The translations under genes were made by a program, and so were the position numbers. A stretch of DNA of 64,000 bases, taken from an uncultured delta proteobacterium (GTDB lineage Bacteria > Desulfobacterota > RBG-13-43-22). The stretch covers positions 384,001 through 448,000 of the forward strand of contig CAWJJC010000028.1 in the NCBI GenBank assembly GCA_963843145.1, read 5' to 3'. The notes beneath the pieces are model-generated. The model was given only the letters and a program-made list of their open reading frames with translations, did no database searches and had not been told where the DNA came from. Shown one piece after another: positions 8,670 to 60,125 of this stretch; the first letter of the stretch is position 1; each line of letters begins with the position of its first letter.

Positions 8670-9010
8670 CTAAAGAGCCAGGCTTAATCTAAGTGCCCGG
8701 TCAACCTCTTCCATTTTCTTCTCTTCAATGATGCCCAATCTTTTTTCCAGTCGATCTTTGGAAACCGTGAGGATTTGGCCGGTTTTTATGATGGAGGGTT
8801 TAGTCAATCCTCCCTGGGGTGGTTCGATCAAGACATTCATGGGATAAATTCTGATGGTGGCCGAAAGGGCGGCGACAATCGTGGTGGAGGCATGTTCATT
8901 GCCAATATCGTTTTGAATAACCAGCGCGGGCCTTTTCCCCGCCTGTTCGCTTCCGCGACCAGGATTCCAGTTGACCAGCCAAATTTCACCGCTTCGGGGA
9001 AAGTTTTCAT
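8670..9010 (-). pseudogene. mazF: MazF/PemK family toxin, frameshifted near start (missed by ORF track)
   Basis: GEIWLVNWNPGRGSEQAGKRPALVIQNDIGN...QILTVSKDRL...VDRALRLSL; the ATG at 9010 is 1 nt out of frame (341 nt total). Confidence 0.85.
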
Positions 9011-9069
9011 CGCAACATTTCCATTTCTATATATTAAACGGGACTTTCTGGTTAGGAAAGGTCATCGAA

Positions 9070-12000
9070 ATGACACCGACAAAAAATAACCCAATCAGAA
9101 GCAATCGGCCGATTCTCCGGAAAGCCGTTTCCCGGGAGCGTCTGTTCAAACAACTGGACCGTTTACTGGACGGCCCGGTCATCTGGGTCTCCGGCCCGGG
9201 TGGCTGCGGCAAGACGACACTGGTCAGTTCCTATCTGCAGGACCGGAGAATTCCCAACCTCTGGCACCAGGTAGCAGAGGCTGATAAGGACCCGGCCACC
9301 TTTTTTTACCGACTTGGGTTCTCTTTTAGCGATGCCTTTCCCCGTCGAAAAAACCCCCTGCCCCTTTTTGGCCCCGAATATCTCCAAGGCATCCCCGCCT
9401 TTGCCCGGCGCTTTTTCCAGGAGGCCTTCAGCAGATTAAAACCAGGGACGATTCTGGTTTTAGACAATTTCCAGTTCATTCCGGAGAATTCGATAATCCA
9501 GGAGGCTATTCTACTGGGAGTGAACGAATTCGCCCAGGGCAGGCTTCTGGTGCTGATCAGCCGGGGTGCCCCGCCTCCATCCTGGATCAGGCTCCAGGCC
9601 AATCAGGTATTGGGCCTGTTGACCTGGGAAGACCTGCGCCTGACCTTGGAAGAATCGGTGGATATCGTCCGATTGAGACCCGATCGGGACATTCCAGGGG
9701 AAACGATTCGGCAGGTTCATGCTTTGGTTGACGGCTGGGCGGCTGGGTTGATCCTGATACTGCAAGGCCTCAGGCAGGGGATGGTTCTCAAAAAAATTGA
9801 TGATATCACCCGGGAGGGCATCTTCCAATATTTTGGAAAGGAGATTTTCGACAAAACCAGCCCGGAGATAAAGGATTTTCTCCTCCGGACGGCTTTCCTG
9901 CCTCAAATGACCGTTGGGATAGCGGAAACGCTGACCGGCCTTCCCCAGGCTGGTTCCATCCTGGCCAGGTTGATGCGGAACAATTATTTCATCGATCAGC
10001 GATACCTAAAAGAGCCGGTCTACCAGTATCACCCCCTGTTCAGGACCTTTTTGCGAAAGCAGGCTAAGTCGCATTTCTCCCCGGATACGTATAAGGACTT
10101 TAACCGGAAGGCCGTTCACCTGCTGGAAACAGATGGACAGATCGAAGAAGCCTTTATTTTGGCCCGGGAGGCCGAGGACCGGGAAGTGATGATGCGTATC
10201 ATCCTCCAGAATGCTCAAATCCTCCAGTTTCAGGGAAGGTTCCAACTGCTACGGGAATGGCTGGAAGGGCTGCCGAGCGATCTGATTGAACAGGATGCTT
10301 GGCTTCTTTTCTGGCAGGGAGCAGCCCAATCCCATTTTGATTTGATTTTATGCCGGGATCTTCTGGAGCGGTCTTATGAAAAATTCAAGCAAAAAGGGGA
10401 AATAGTCGGGATGCTTTTGGCCTGGTCCGGCATCGTTTTACTCATTGCTCATTTCCTTAAAGCTAGTGATCAGTTGGATTATTGGATTGATGAACTCAAG
10501 ATCCATGTTCGGGATCCCTTTCAGGAATTTCCTTCTCCCTGGATTGGAGAGCGAGTTTCGACGAGTTTGTTTTGCGCCCTAGTCCAGAAACAGCCCGGTC
10601 ATCCGGAGATAGAACTCTGGGCGAGTCGAGCCCTGTCCCTGACGGAAGACTTCCGATATTATAAAGACATTAGAGGTGTTTTTTTATTCTATCTGGTTCT
10701 TTTCAGACTCTCTGTCGGCCACTTAGAAAAGGCCTCCCTGGCGTTGGAAATGTTCAACTCATTTACGCAAACCCTGGAAGATCAGTCCCCCCTTCGTATA
10801 TCTGGCATCATGGCCCAGGCGATGTTTTTTCAGGTAGCGGGCTTCCCTGAAAAATGCATTAAGTCCGTTTCCGAGGGCCTTGAGTTTTCCCGAACATTCG
10901 GCGAGGCTGGGACTATTGGAAGTAATTTTTTGTTTTTCCAGGCCATCCAGAATTCACTGAATATGAATGATACCGAAAAGGCGTGCCAGTTCATTAGCCA
11001 GTTATCCACTTCCATGAATAACCCAGGAGTGGGAAACAAGGCGATGGCTAGCCGTGACCAGTGCTTTTATTTTTACACCTTGGCCAGAGAAGAACTTATC
11101 CGCGGAACATACGATCATGCCGCCATTCATGGGGAACAGGCCCTGCGGTTCGCGATCGACACCGGCGCCCCATTCTTCATCGGGACCGCCTATCTGCTGA
11201 ACGCCGTTATTTTGAATCGCCGAGGGATGGATGATAAGGCCCGGGAACACCTTTCCCAGGGCCTGGCCATCTCCCGGCAGATCAAGAGCCTAATCCTGGA
11301 ATTCAATGCCCGGCTGCAGCAGGCCTATGTGGCCTTCAAGAGCCGCGAGGAAATCAAGGGCCTCAGGTCTCTTCGGGAAGCGTTGACCCTGGGGAAAGAA
11401 GAGAAGTTTTTGAATACCTACATTGACTGTCCGGCTGATACCGCCTTTCTCTGCCAGAAGGCGCTGGAAGAGGGGATCGAGGTGGAATACGTCCAGGAAA
11501 TCATCCGCCGGAGAAGGCTGGCGCCTGAAAATCCTCCAGTCCATCTGGAAAATTGGCCCTGGCTGCTGAAGGTGTACACCTTGGGACAGTTCGTCATTTA
11601 TAAAGATGGGCAGCCCCTCCGCTTCTCGCGCAAGGCCCAGAAAAAACCTCTCGAACTGCTCCAGGCCCTGATCGCCGCCGGGGCCAAGGGCATCCGGGAT
11701 GAGGAACTGGCCGATGTCCTCTGGCCGGAGGCCGACGGGGATGCAGCGGCCCAAACGTTAAAGACCACGCTGTATCGGCTTCGCCTGCTGATCGGTAAGG
11801 ACGAGGTGGTGAAAGTCCGCGAAGGGCGGGTGACCCTGGACGACCGCCATTGCTGGACCGATGCCTGGGCCTTTGAACAGCTTATCGGAGAGGCTGATCG
11901 GAGCAATTCCCAGGCCGCCCTCCCGCTGCTGGAAAAGGCCGTCGGGTCATACCAAGGCCCTTTTCTGGGCCGGGGGATGGAGGAGCCCTGGCTGCTGTCC

Positions 12001-12297
12001 GCCGCGGAAAGGCTGCGCAGCAAATTCCTGCGCGGGGTGGAGAGGTTGGGCTCCCTCCGGAGCCAAAAAGAAGAATGGAAGCAAGCCCGGGAATGCTACC
12101 TGAAGGGTCTGGAGGTGGACGGCCTGGCCGAGGAATTCTGCCGGGGCGCCCTGGTCTGCTGCCGGAAACTGGGTTTGCGGGCCGAGGGGTTGTCGCTTTA
12201 CAAGCGTTTTGAGAAAAGGCTTAAAACGGAGCTAGGGATCGAACCGGACGCTCGGACCAGGGTTGTCAGGGACAGTTTGCTGGGAGAGGCAGGATGA
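9070..12297 (+). CDS. MalT-like STAND ATPase transcriptional activator with TPR region and C-terminal wHTH-BTAD (SARP-like) module
   Basis: R.RL, GPGGCGKTT, LVLDNF, GWAAGL, YQYHPLFR; C-terminal LG.F, LWPEADGD, LYRLR, Y.GPFL; ATG 9070 has an RBS. Confidence 0.88.
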   Translation: MTPTKNNPIRSNRPILRKAVSRERLFKQLDRLLDGPVIWVSGPGGCGKTTLVSSYLQDRRIPNLWHQVAEADKDPATFFYRLGFSFSDAFPRRKNPLPLFGPEYLQGIPAFARRFFQEAFSRLKPGTILVLDNFQFIPENSIIQEAILLGVNEFAQGRLLVLISRGAPPPSWIRLQANQVLGLLTWEDLRLTLEESVDIVRLRPDRDIPGETIRQVHALVDGWAAGLILILQGLRQGMVLKKIDDITREGIFQYFGKEIFDKTSPEIKDFLLRTAFLPQMTVGIAETLTGLPQAGSILARLMRNNYFIDQRYLKEPVYQYHPLFRTFLRKQAKSHFSPDTYKDFNRKAVHLLETDGQIEEAFILAREAEDREVMMRIILQNAQILQFQGRFQLLREWLEGLPSDLIEQDAWLLFWQGAAQSHFDLILCRDLLERSYEKFKQKGEIVGMLLAWSGIVLLIAHFLKASDQLDYWIDELKIHVRDPFQEFPSPWIGERVSTSLFCALVQKQPGHPEIELWASRALSLTEDFRYYKDIRGVFLFYLVLFRLSVGHLEKASLALEMFNSFTQTLEDQSPLRISGIMAQAMFFQVAGFPEKCIKSVSEGLEFSRTFGEAGTIGSNFLFFQAIQNSLNMNDTEKACQFISQLSTSMNNPGVGNKAMASRDQCFYFYTLAREELIRGTYDHAAIHGEQALRFAIDTGAPFFIGTAYLLNAVILNRRGMDDKAREHLSQGLAISRQIKSLILEFNARLQQAYVAFKSREEIKGLRSLREALTLGKEEKFLNTYIDCPADTAFLCQKALEEGIEVEYVQEIIRRRRLAPENPPVHLENWPWLLKVYTLGQFVIYKDGQPLRFSRKAQKKPLELLQALIAAGAKGIRDEELADVLWPEADGDAAAQTLKTTLYRLRLLIGKDEVVKVREGRVTLDDRHCWTDAWAFEQLIGEADRSNSQAALPLLEKAVGSYQGPFLGRGMEEPWLLSAAERLRSKFLRGVERLGSLRSQKEEWKQARECYLKGLEVDGLAEEFCRGALVCCRKLGLRAEGLSLYKRFEKRLKTELGIEPDARTRVVRDSLLGEAG

Positions 12298-14917: not shown

Positions 14918-15316
14918 TTAAAAGGCTACCAGGTCCAGTTTGGTGAATTTTTGGATTGTTTTAAAGTGGTTGTCCAGGGTTAGTATACGCAGCCGGTTTT
15001 CAACGGCCATCTGGGCGATCAGCAGGTCAACCACGCCGATTGTGTTTCCTTTTTTGGAAATCGAAAAGCCCATTTCCCCTGCCATTCGATAGCTTTCGGG
15101 TTTGGGGTCAACCATTTTGATTACGGAGAATAACTCGTTGATGACCGTCAACTCTTTAAGGCTTTTCCCGCCGCGAAGCAGTTCCAGGAGGACGATCCCG
15201 GACCCGACCGCCTTCTGATCTCGAAGATACCCGGACACCAGATCAAAAACTGGTTCATTCTTTTTACGGAAGAATTCGATCCAGGCGGATGTGTCGATTA
15301 AAATGCTACCGTTCAT
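14918..15316 (-). CDS. vapC: VapC PIN-domain toxin
   Basis: LIDTSAWIEFF, ELLRG, DLLIA, LTLDNHF. Confidence 0.9.
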   Translation of the reverse strand: MNGSILIDTSAWIEFFRKKNEPVFDLVSGYLRDQKAVGSGIVLLELLRGGKSLKELTVINELFSVIKMVDPKPESYRMAGEMGFSISKKGNTIGVVDLLIAQMAVENRLRILTLDNHFKTIQKFTKLDLVAF

Positions 15317-15500
15317 GGCGGGCTTTTTCCCAGTCGTTATTAAAATCAAGTTTTCCGGCCGAACCTATAATTTTTTCAACTTTTTGTTTTCGAATCAATT
15401 CGGTCAGGGCCTTATGAATTGTTTCCGTTTTTGTCCGAGATCCGGTTAAGCGGATAGCCTCCTCGAGTAATTCTTTTGATATGTTCAATGTTGTTTTCAT
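15306..15500 (-). CDS. vapB: VapB family antitoxin (RHH)
   Basis: MKTTLNI..ELLEEA..LTG..TKTETI..AL; overlaps vapC start. Confidence 0.88.
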   Translation of the reverse strand: MKTTLNISKELLEEAIRLTGSRTKTETIHKALTELIRKQKVEKIIGSAGKLDFNNDWEKARHER

Positions 15501-15585: not shown

Positions 15586-15617
15586 TTGACAAGTATGATT
15601 TAAGATACTAAAATCAT
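15586..15617 (+). promoter_or_regulatory. Sigma70 promoter of marR with overlapping operator palindrome (probably leaderless mRNA)
   Basis: TTGACA(15586)-17-TAAAAT(15609); inverted repeat ATGATTT-N9-AAATCAT (15595-15617); ATG only 5 nt after the -10 box. Confidence 0.7.
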
Positions 15618-15619
15618 CC

Positions 15620-16069
15620 ATGTCCTCAGAGCCTGCAAAAATAGCCGGTCAGATCCGCCGAGTCATCAACCGGTCCATGTTCCTGGAGAAGCGGACCATT
15701 CTGCACCATGAGGCCCTGCGGCTCTTTCCCTCGGAAATTCACCTGTTGCAGGTCATCGACGAATCTCCGGAACTGAGCGCCGGGGAAATGGCTCGGAAGT
15801 TGGGTATCAGCATTGGCGCCGTGTCCCAGACGCTGAACCGCCTGGAAAAGAAAGGGGTTATCCTAAAGAGCAAGGCCCCGGCCCTTAAAAACAGGCTGTC
15901 GGCCAGGTTGACCGAGGTCGGGCAAACCGCTATCCGGCAATTTGAGCAAGGGCAGGAAGTCACGATGAAGGCTTTTTCCAGCTACCTGGGCGGATTGTCA
16001 AACGGAGAAAGAAAGGTCATCGAGGGATTTCTATCCCACTTGGAGGAATTCTTGAGACGCCTGGAGTAA
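15620..16069 (+). CDS. MarR family transcriptional regulator
   Basis: LFPSEIHLL, winged-HTH GISIGAVSQTLNRLEKKG, LTEVG. Confidence 0.9.
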   Translation: MSSEPAKIAGQIRRVINRSMFLEKRTILHHEALRLFPSEIHLLQVIDESPELSAGEMARKLGISIGAVSQTLNRLEKKGVILKSKAPALKNRLSARLTEVGQTAIRQFEQGQEVTMKAFSSYLGGLSNGERKVIEGFLSHLEEFLRRLE

Positions 16070-16117
16070 TTTTTTTTGGACTATGTTTATAGTATCTAAA
16101 ATCAAAGGAGGATGATT

Positions 16118-16861
16118 ATGGGAAACAGATTGTTGGCCGGTGTTGGGCGTACCCTGGTGGGGGTGCCTCCCATTCTTTGGGAGAAACGAATTGAAAAGGC
16201 GAGGCAGAAGAAAATAAATTCCATTCGATTTATGTCCCCCGAGCATCGCCTGGTTCATCATTATGTGGTCGGGGAGTTGCCGCGTATCGGAGGACCGATA
16301 TCGGCGGAAAAGGTGTCCCAGGATCTGGCCTTGTCCCTGGAGCGAACCCTAGATATTTTGCGCGAGTTGGAGGAACACCTGACCTTTCTTTGCCGGAACG
16401 AGGAGGGGCAGGTCGTCTGGGCCTACCCGGTGACCGTGGAAAAAACCCCGCACCGAATCATCTTCGAATCGGGGGAGCGGTTGTATGCCGCTTGAGCGGT
16501 GGACGCGTTCGCGACGCCCTTCGTGCAAGGGCAACTGAGGCAGGAAAAGGTAGTCATTCGGGTTGACACGGAATGCGCCCACTGCAAAAGTCCGATGCAG
16601 TTGGAGATCGACAGCGATATGAATTGCCGTTGCCCGGAAACGGACTGTAACCCGATTATCTTTGTCCCCGACGTGGATTTCGGTCACCTGAAAGATCCCA
16701 ACATCATCGAGGCCTTTTGAAAAAAAAGTGTGTTCTTCCGGTCGGAAGAACATGCTCGGGCGTATCGAAGGAAAGAGCATCGAATCCGTGGTGCGTATTT
16801 TACCACCAGTCAGATCGCCTATTTAAATAAAGCCATTCAGAGCGCCATCTTTGGTTGGTGA
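16118..16861 (+). CDS. Organomercurial lyase MerB-like protein with two in-frame UGA codons (predicted selenocysteines U126, U201); 247 aa
   Basis: One frame: wHTH...WAYPVTVEKTPH...LYAA-TGA-AVDAF...CAHC...IIEAF-TGA-KKSVFFRSEEHARAY...FGW-stop; the UGAs align with MerB catalytic Cys96 (C-x-x-D99) and Cys159 (FC..VHFF.S); SECIS-like hairpins follow both; AGGAGG RBS 6 nt before ATG 16118. Confidence 0.85.
16516..16532 (+). promoter_or_regulatory. Putative bacterial SECIS hairpin 1
   Basis: GCCCTT-CGTGC-AAGGGC; loop starts 26 nt after UGA 16493-16495, with G at loop position 2. Confidence 0.55.
16727..16756 (+). promoter_or_regulatory. Putative bacterial SECIS hairpin 2
   Basis: AGTGTGTTCTTCC-GGTC-GGAAGAACATGCT 13-bp stem; GGUC loop 19 nt after UGA 16718-16720. 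Confidence 0.75.
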
Positions 16862-18511: not shown

Positions 18512-19315
18512 TCACTTGCCGTGAGTCAGGGCGATCTTCTCGAACATGGTCACCAACCCCACGCAGAGCGAATAGATCGATTCGATTTTGAGGTTTTCTT
18601 CCGCGGTGACGTCAAAGAACAGGTGCAGTGAAGAATCCATACCGTCCTCGCTTTTCCAGTAACACAATAAAACGGGCAGTCGGGGCAGGGGATGGATGAC
18701 TACGGCGATATCCGAATTGAAGCGGTCGGGCGCGGGTTCACCCGCGAAAATTTCAATAAGCAGTTCCAGGAGTTCGGTATATTCGTCGATGACTTTTTTT
18801 AACGGCTTTTCGCAACGCTGTTCGAAAAGACGCCACCAGTCCGCTCCGCCCTTGGTGTCTCTAAGCGGAAGCCACTCCCCTCGGGGCTCTCGGCCGGCGC
18901 AATCCAGGAGATAGTTCAAAATCGGAATAGAAACCCACCGGTTCACGTGGCAATCGGAATGGATGACGCCTTCGGCATCAACGCTGAAAGGCTTGCCTAA
19001 ACAGGTGAGCGTCAATTCCCCCTGGTGGTAAATAGCGCCGCATCGTTCCGCGGCCTCGCCCAGGTCGATTTTCCGGATTCGCTGCCGCAGGTTTTCCAAC
19101 GCCTTCTGGCTGTCCCTTTCAATTGAGCCTCCTTCCCCGACGCCTCTCCGGGACTCAGTCGAGCTTTCCTCTTCCAGATAAGGGCAGTCGCCGAGCGTTT
19201 TTTTGCCCTGGAATACCGCCACTGAAAAAGCCAGGCAACTGGCTTGGCGGCATTCCCGGCAGTTTGTCTTGGGAAGCCGGTTCAAGACCTCCAAGTGACT
19301 GGTTATGCGGGTCAT
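18512..19315 (-). CDS. Fe-S domain plus DUF3786 protein
   Basis: N-terminal LPKTNCRECRQASCLAF...CPY Fe-S motif; PLPRLP...W...LFFD C-terminal domain. Confidence 0.8.
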   Translation of the reverse strand: MTRITSHLEVLNRLPKTNCRECRQASCLAFSVAVFQGKKTLGDCPYLEEESSTESRRGVGEGGSIERDSQKALENLRQRIRKIDLGEAAERCGAIYHQGELTLTCLGKPFSVDAEGVIHSDCHVNRWVSIPILNYLLDCAGREPRGEWLPLRDTKGGADWWRLFEQRCEKPLKKVIDEYTELLELLIEIFAGEPAPDRFNSDIAVVIHPLPRLPVLLCYWKSEDGMDSSLHLFFDVTAEENLKIESIYSLCVGLVTMFEKIALTHGK

Positions 19316-59896: not shown

Positions 59897-59901
59897 AAAC
59901 C

Positions 59902-59995
<94 letters not shown>

Positions 59996-60031: not shown

Positions 60032-60125
60032 GGAGAGATGCCCGAGCTGGCTGAAGGGGCACGACTGGAAATCGTGTGTACGCCCAAAAGGTGTACCGAG
60101 GGTTCGAATCCCTCTCTCTCCGCCA
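60032..60125 (+). tRNA. tRNA-Ser (GGA)
   Basis: GGAGAGA...TCTCTCC-G-CCA; anticodon arm CACGA-CTGGAAA-TCGTG; long variable arm. Confidence 0.95.

Follow-up and report, generated by a model that had tools for sequence, protein, structure and literature searches.

The window analyzed here is a 64,000-nucleotide stretch of DNA from an uncultured delta proteobacterium (GTDB lineage Bacteria; Desulfobacterota; RBG-13-43-22), taken from GenBank assembly GCA_963843145.1, contig CAWJJC010000028.1, positions 384,001 to 448,000 of the forward strand. At positions 16118 to 16861 of the window, on the + strand, lies a gene for a MerB-like protein of 247 amino acids that is interrupted by in-frame TGA codons. 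A single frame of 247 codons plus a stop runs from ATG at 16118 to TGA at 16859 to 16861, and TGA interrupts it twice, at 16493 to 16495 (codon 126, context YAA-U-AVD, with U denoting selenocysteine [Sec]) and at 16718 to 16720 (codon 201, context AF-U-KKSVFF). Under genetic code table 11, the same frame is seen as two open reading frames (ORFs; 16112 to 16495 and 16499 to 16720) with an uncalled tail to 16861. A GGAGG ribosome-binding site was read from the sequence at 16107 to 16111 (+); an alternative ATG at 16112 abuts it, and the ATG at 16118 lies six bases 3' of it. The original prediction for this DNA had joined the pieces into one frame with two TGA codons, and the 247-residue readthrough product holds every motif that it quoted.

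Conservation of the two TGA codons was assessed in two collections of relatives. In a sample of 401 genomes of the same phylum, 26 (this genome included) hold a homolog at E ≤ 1e-10, and a contig scan of one genome per species gave 249 relatives, 80 of which were kept for alignment; the 26 full-length loci of the phylum sample and the 80 of the species scan, less 12 common to both, make 94 distinct loci. TGA occupies both aligned positions in 26/26 and 80/80 loci, respectively, and in 94/94 distinct orthologous loci overall, which come from several phyla and whose identities span 78% down to 24%. Protein conservation runs on past each TGA to a common C-terminal end, with orthologs ending within 0 to 14 residues of the stop of the window gene (TGA is the stop codon in 17 of 26, and TAA or TAG in the other 9). 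Going by record titles, deltaproteobacterial or Thermodesulfobacteriota metagenome-assembled genomes (Syntrophus, Smithellaceae, Syntrophaceae, Desulfomonilaceae, Desulfobacterales, and others) supply 60 of the 80 kept loci, Chloroflexota or Anaerolineales supply 9, Nitrospirota 2, and Rokubacteria 1, while the remainder carry vague or doubtful labels. Logan contigs from other public soil-metagenome runs have identical letters across each TGA, and the run that matches best may be the source sample. One genome carries a second window-type copy (G275:C7, L049/L050) in which a frameshift immediately precedes the second Sec site; this copy is probably a decaying duplicate.

Bacterial selenocysteine insertion sequence (SECIS) elements follow a rule of set spacing after UGA and a G/U-containing loop. 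Judged by this rule, and not by a SECIS program, both in-frame TGA codons of the window gene are followed by such a hairpin. SECIS 1 (16517 to 16531, +) has a CCCUU/AAGGG stem and a CGUGC loop and lies 21 bases after its TGA. In one sequence alone, the fold behind the first TGA is not significant (z = +0.55); the hairpin became visible only with the alignment of 26 sequences, in which 5/5 pairs are kept in 26/26 and one compensatory change, U-A to A-U, is seen. SECIS 2 (16728 to 16755, +) was found by folding as well as by alignment and is a hairpin of 12 to 13 bp with a GGUC loop, starting 7 to 8 bases after its TGA; in the window it folds with −18.9 kcal/mol (z = −3.94), and only 1 of 200 shuffles was equally stable. 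At its loop-closing pair, 15 of the 26 sequences have U-A, 10 have C-G, and in 1 the pair is broken; the accompanying R/W difference (CGG/TGG) is compensated by TCG/TCA, a change that leaves Ser unaltered. Precisely beneath both stems, synonymous sites are frozen: codon entropy is 0 to 0.24 bit at codons 134 to 138 (under SECIS 1) and 206 to 211 (under SECIS 2), whereas fourfold-degenerate codons in the rest of the gene show about 1.5 to 2 bits. No stable fold was found in the 60 bases that follow the terminating TGA (z = −0.49), and an Rfam search of the region gave no family match.

The genome also holds the machinery for Sec insertion. selA (609.4 bits), selB (368.8 bits), and selD (395.3 bits) all score above their cut-offs, as does a tRNA-Sec with anticodon TCA (75.1 bits). 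The selD gene (G000:C27:447576-448499, L018) itself has one in-frame TGA and would encode a Sec-containing selenophosphate synthetase. Within the window, two sub-threshold matches to the tRNA-Sec model (59901 to 59992 and 60032 to 60121, +; 41.9 and 36.1 bits versus a cut-off of 47) are probably long-arm tRNAs, for example, those for Ser or Leu. The conserved tail, the TGA pair in every ortholog, the SECIS hairpins, and the Sec machinery together indicate a selenoprotein gene and not a broken gene, and on this comparative evidence the window gene is almost certainly a genuine two-Sec selenoprotein gene. SelB and tRNA-Sec would decode both UGA codons as Sec, each steered by its own downstream mRNA hairpin. 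The original prediction had argued that two chance nonsense mutations at these codons were very unlikely, and the 94/94 count is far beyond chance. Its proposed checks came out in the same direction: TGY replaces TGA in none of the 94 loci, selA, selB, selD, and tRNA-Sec are all present, and the segment after 16720, on whose MerB similarity the prediction was made to depend, is conserved MerB sequence.

The assignment to the MerB family rests on profile and structure. The readthrough protein matches Pfam family PF03243 (MerB) over residues 106 to 239 with 57.4 bits (cut-off, 27). An AlphaFold2 model built from the 26 orthologs (predicted local distance difference test score, 90.0; predicted template modeling score, 0.88) was submitted to Foldseek, and the top 11 matches were all MerB or MerB2 (E, 5e-12 to 1.8e-7). 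VIA-align superposed the model on MerB and MerB2 with Z of 20.4 to 22.8 and a root mean square deviation of 2.7 to 3.0 over 196 to 206 residues; the next fold reached a Z of 5.4. Residue equivalences were taken from an alignment of the 26-ortholog profile with E. coli MerB chains (E of about 1e-11), and the numbering was counted from that alignment, which pairs Sec126 (site 1), Asp129, Cys153, and Sec201 (site 2) with MerB Cys96, Asp99, Cys117, and Cys159. Cys153 is invariant, and Tyr123 is the equivalent of MerB Tyr93. The Asp at +3 of site 1 is present in 93 of the 94 distinct loci, the exception being L048 with Gly. The window gene encodes a MerB-family selenoprotein in which Sec126, Asp129, and Sec201 stand on the MerB catalytic positions within a MerB fold; membership in this family, the placement of the two TGA codons on Cys96 and Cys159, and retention of the Asp at +3 had all been read from the sequence in the original prediction and are borne out here.

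More distant relatives exchange Sec for Cys. Cys is found at site 1 in relatives P0030, P0035, P0036, P0039, P0041, and P0047 and at site 2 in P0028 and P0031, and canonical MerB-like rows have Cys at both sites; as read from the alignment, this is the usual pattern at a functional residue. The same site 1 Cys relatives, together with P0010 and P0022, which also have Cys there, end exactly before site 2. They would represent a one-Sec form inside or beside the window-type clade, with the pattern of SaoL, a MerB-like selenoprotein to which we return below. P0012, P0032, P0033, P0040, P0044, P0070, and P0084 have neither Sec nor Cys at the two sites: site 1 is G, E, or S, and site 2 is L, G, or a gap. 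Their protein sequences suggest that these may be inactivated or repurposed forms.

A census with the Pfam MerB model over the 401 phylum genomes, with the table counted by hand, gave 89 matches in 66 genomes. Twelve are free of internal stops, 10 carry a single TGA (SaoL-like sequences and the frameshifted copy), and 67 carry two. Their coordinates mark 22 of these 67 as window type; the other 45 fall for the most part into a second clade, here called type B, with the motifs Q-U-[AG]-F-E, in which Glu takes the +3 position, and U-STMNFFRSEEH. A type B paralog is present in the same genome as the window gene (G000:C20, L144:1285-2103, +; Pfam MerB, 73.9 bits); its two in-frame TGAs fall on both ligand positions (WFGQ-U-GFE, again with Glu at +3, and IPYS-U-STMNLFRSEE). 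Type B and the window type have an identical UCUUCCGGUCGGAAGA hairpin (GGUC loop) behind the second TGA but differ in that Glu replaces Asp at +3 and in forming separate clades. In an unrooted tree of 43 sequences, from which no order of events can be read, the window-type group has support of 100/99 (86/76 when the long-branched L048 is included), and type B has support of 99/98 and is sister to Cys/Cys proteins that also carry Glu.

Public protein databases hold this family largely in pieces. Public protein representatives that match the profile number 2133 at E ≤ 0.001, and 710 reach E ≤ 1e-10; among the best 150, about 98 by hand count break off at profile position 123 to 125, just before Sec126. 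The entries are mainly 125-residue fragments, and the N-terminal fragments carry no Pfam label. Many full-length public entries have W at both Sec positions; judging from the protein entries alone, this is best explained by TGA having been read under table 4 on short contigs. The window gene is one member of a large, overlooked two-Sec MerB-like group in anaerobes, and the two-Sec form is common in oxygen-avoiding bacteria of sediment and soil.

Upstream of the window gene, on the same strand, lies a gene for a MarR-family regulator of 149 residues with no cysteine (15620 to 16069; PF01047, 42.4 bits; cut-off, 24.6). It is preceded by a sigma-70-like promoter sequence, TTGACA-17-TAAAAT (15586 to 15614, +), which matches 11 of 12 consensus positions and is a consensus match only. 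The gap between the MarR gene and the MerB-like gene is 48 bases, and a scan of it revealed no promoter-like or terminator-like site; the arrangement of the sequence suggests that the two genes likely form an operon with one promoter driving both. Directly upstream of the MarR gene, on the opposite strand, is a VapB antitoxin and PIN-domain VapC toxin pair (14921 to 15500, −). Other neighbors include DUF188, a methyltransferase-like protein, and DUF3786. Farther away, at 8971 to 12297 (+), is a gene for a 1108-residue regulator with AAA_16, MalT-like TPR, and C-terminal BTAD domains. The DUF3786 gene (18515 to 19315, −), 1.7 kb from the window gene, encodes a protein that joins DUF3786 to an N-terminal PF04060 domain, a putative Fe-S domain also present in the corrinoid Fe-S protein, and another DUF3786 gene lies directly 3' of the type B paralog on its contig. 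DUF3786 was considered as a conserved partner and rejected: among type B loci it occurs in 1 of 13, among other MerB loci in 0 of 17, and among the fetched loci of the window type (type A) in 2 of 106.

Neighborhoods were surveyed at 81 loci, with a nearest upstream ORF available for 77 and a nearest downstream ORF for 76. Orthologs of the MarR gene lie directly upstream on the same strand in 25 of the 81. The nearest upstream ORF encodes a MarR-family protein in 21 to 22 of 77 loci and a MerR-family protein in 12 of 77, and the nearest downstream ORF encodes a 4HBT thioesterase in 8 of 76, the rest being varied. A MarR-family gene does stand upstream of the window gene, as the original prediction had it, but such a neighbor is found in only part of the family. 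In 15 of the 81 loci, the place of MarR is taken by a MerR-family regulator of 170 to 210 residues, whose gene adjoins the MerB-like gene and in 12 to 14 of these loci precedes it on the same strand (upstream in L077, L082, L084, L088 to L090, L092, L096, L097, L103, L108, L118, L119, and L125; downstream in L081). The C-terminal domain of this regulator is conserved (W-H-x-E-F-E-K...H-Q-E-F-L-E-G-L-G-I), the cysteine pair that usually binds metal is missing, and its scores lie below all NCBIfam MerR-type cut-offs. Beyond a regulator, no conserved operon partner was found in the 81 loci, and no transporter, reductase, corrinoid, or methyltransferase neighbor is conserved among them.

The genome also encodes HgcA (G000:C12, L133:1285-2412, +; NF040863, 464 bits versus a cut-off of 275), and an N-terminal extension of this HgcA is reached through one in-frame TGA, giving S-C-U-P-S. 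In a preprint by Haft and Gwadz (bioRxiv 10.1101/2022.07.06.499078), an N-terminal P-C-U-G-P of HgcA is described as perfectly conserved in 20 cases; the motif found here is a variant of it. Because this Sec-containing HgcA scores above its cut-off, the source organism is likely, by its gene content, a mercury methylator.

Given a two-Sec selenoprotein, a carbon-metal lyase is the most likely role of the product, one that we consider probable though well short of assured. We infer it from fold and active-site geometry only, ranking an organomercurial lyase first and a metal trap second, with another organometal as a possible substrate; the demethylase or sequestration role advanced in the original prediction likewise remains an inference. 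Selenolates are better nucleophiles than thiolates and bind mercury more tightly, Hg-Se bonds being stronger than Hg-S bonds. In the proposed reaction, the two selenolates would bind an organometal cation (methylmercury or a different organomercurial being the likeliest), and Asp129 would protonate the carbon, so that the hydrocarbon would be released and the metal left on the diselenolate site. The tighter Hg-Se binding would favor capture and cleavage at very low substrate levels and would hinder product release. Since there is neither a mercuric reductase partner nor a conserved transporter or reductase neighbor, the bound metal must pass to sulfide, to thiols, or to some other acceptor or partner, or else the protein is a trap. 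Methylmercury as the natural substrate is a tentative choice, with somewhat less than an even chance of being correct.

Several observations weigh against an organomercurial lyase. No MerA was found above cut-off in the genome (best, 325.7 bits versus 454.45), in line with the original prediction, which noted no merA nearby, and the usual route by which Hg(II) is removed from MerB is thus missing; no mer transport genes were found near the window gene either. A conserved Cys pair of the metal-sensing MerR/ArsR kind is absent from the aligned neighbor regulators of both the MarR and the MerR family, so no ligand can be named for them. Co-occurrence with hgcA is modest: HgcA is above cut-off in 13 of 26 carriers and 106 of 375 noncarriers, counts that are uncorrected for relatedness, and in one genome (G297) HgcA is present only as two sub-threshold pieces. 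Haft and Gwadz argued for SaoL that Sec at the metal site may point to a substrate other than mercury. No RNA run was found to contain the window stretch. Finally, a diselenolate site, Hg-Se bonds being tight, might hold its metal without turnover.

This last point leads to the alternative that survives best, although we regard it as unlikely: a noncatalytic, high-affinity trap or chaperone, in which Hg(II), methylmercury, or some other soft metal would be bound stoichiometrically by the diselenolate with no lyase turnover. Such a protein would shield other selenoproteins and corrinoid or Fe-S enzymes or would pass the metal to a partner. It would fit with the very high affinity of selenium for mercury, with the lack of MerA or another obvious acceptor in the genome, and with a neighborhood in which a regulator, and no conserved operon partner, was found at 81 loci. 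MerB Asp99 also ligates bound mercury in the product complexes among the PDB entries, and conservation of the Asp therefore cannot separate binding from catalysis. A trap would, however, need two ligands and little else, whereas the full MerB fold is kept together with Tyr123, Asp129, and Cys153 over identities of 24 to 78%; a two-Sec protein would also be costly for one-time use.

Considerably less probable is a lyase or transferase acting on a different organometal or on a metalloid (organotin, organolead, methylated arsenic, or a cobalt-carbon species), or a metabolic rather than protective role such as that proposed for SAO. The argument of Haft and Gwadz given above speaks for it. So do the chromosomal location of the gene, its wide distribution, its housekeeping-like neighbors, and its absence from mer-type mobile elements, together with the weakness of the hgcA link. 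Set against these are the lack of any conserved transporter, corrinoid, or methyltransferase partner and the rarity of DUF3786 in the type A loci. To our knowledge, moreover, the only biochemistry established for the MerB fold is the cleavage of Hg-C, Sn-C, and Pb-C bonds by MerB itself.

A redox protein, in which the Sec pair would cycle between diselenide and selenols on a MerB fold serving as mere scaffold, is highly improbable. Selenoproteome reviews describe most bacterial selenoproteins as redox enzymes, but the two Sec residues here are 75 positions apart and occupy both metal-ligand positions with a conserved Asp, and neither a UxxC/CxxU-type motif nor a thioredoxin-like fold is present. 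That the gene is nonfunctional, whether as a pseudogene, through sequencing error, or with TGA read as Trp or Gly under another code, might be suggested by the W residues in public entries and by the splitting of the gene by gene callers, but it has a negligible chance and is refuted by TGA/TGA in 94/94 loci, by the frozen synonymous sites and covarying hairpins behind both codons, by the complete Sec machinery, and by the use of TGA as the terminator here and in 17 of 26 orthologs.

If the lyase reading is correct, the family bears on an acknowledged problem. Mer-independent methylmercury degradation in anoxic settings is an acknowledged gap in knowledge, treated in a review of demethylation (PMC10114901), and the two-Sec family offers a concrete, widespread candidate for it. 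A speculative proposal, which we hold to be rather doubtful, is that the missing mer-independent methylmercury demethylation in anoxic soils and sediments is carried out by these proteins, acting as diselenolate lyases on trace methylmercury. If it is true, the carriers would include many of the Thermodesulfobacteriota, Chloroflexota, and Nitrospirota lineages in which mercury methylation also occurs, and net methylmercury production in nature would hinge on selenium supply through both HgcA and the two-Sec enzyme. Surveys of merB would have been blind to the family, as gene callers cut at the first TGA; ordinary gene calling divides the gene into unrecognizable pieces and so leaves a systematic blind spot in such surveys. 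A two-Sec enzyme would link the selenium and mercury cycles in methylating organisms, and the genome examined here also has the Sec-containing HgcA. A diselenolate enzyme would, in addition, be a natural test of whether selenium speeds or blocks Hg-C cleavage.

No description of a two-Sec MerB was found in the searchable literature; an earlier description may exist. In passages of selenoproteome reviews from 2022 and 2026, a SaoL-type entry is the only MerB relative; the main texts of the GOS paper and an ISME J 2016 paper contain no MerB, and a term search of the whole text of the Haft and Gwadz preprint gave no two-Sec MerB relative. As far as could be found, the type B two-Sec clade also appears to be undescribed.

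The closest described selenoprotein is SaoL. According to Haft and Gwadz (bioRxiv 10.1101/2022.07.06.499078), SaoL is a MerB-like selenoprotein whose single Sec stands at the Cys159 position as part of a CU dipeptide and which retains Cys at the Cys96 position; it marks a nine-gene SAO locus that includes an ABC transporter, an efflux pump, and thioredoxin-like and DsrE-like proteins, and it is known from more than 50 anaerobic species. The original prediction had mentioned a Sec-containing MerB relative of this name from a clostridial system; such a relative does exist, but the reported range is not only clostridial. SaoL and the window family have in common that they are MerB relatives of anaerobes with Sec at the Cys159 equivalent, that they lie outside mer resistance operons, and that their database entries are truncated at the Sec TGA. 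They differ in that SaoL has Cys at the Cys96 site and its single Sec in C-U, whereas the window protein has two Sec residues, in the contexts AA-U-A and AF-U-K, and no CU. The window protein scores 47.4 with the SaoL model NF040728 (cut-off, 140) and is not SaoL; it passes no model in NCBIfam release 20.0. SAO-type genes were not found within about 7 kb in the window and are not conserved beside the gene in the 81 loci, the Sao models not having been run genome-wide. In the tree, the one-TGA (SaoL-like) sequences fall outside the window-type group.

The window protein belongs to the same Pfam family and has the same fold as MerB (E. coli plasmid R831b; PDB 3F0O, 3F0P, and 1S6L) and MerB2 (PDB 5C17), although its identity to the MerB structures is only 14 to 19%. 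Its N terminus is about 20 residues longer than that of MerB, and the structural alignments begin at model residue 21 to 25. The NCBIfam MerB models NF009710 and NF033555 (EC 4.99.1.2) are not passed (51.4 versus 193 and 41.6 versus 200, respectively). The mer context of MerB (merA, merR, merT, and merP) has no counterpart at the window gene, which is chromosomal and whose family is found in strict anaerobes. Each of the catalytic positions nevertheless lines up with its counterpart in MerB, Asp99 among them, and so does the structural Cys117, with the catalytic Cys pair changed to Sec at both positions in all 94 loci. From the MerB fold and these aligned positions, a MerB-like mode of working would be expected, with two chalcogenolate metal ligands and an acid that protonates the carbon.

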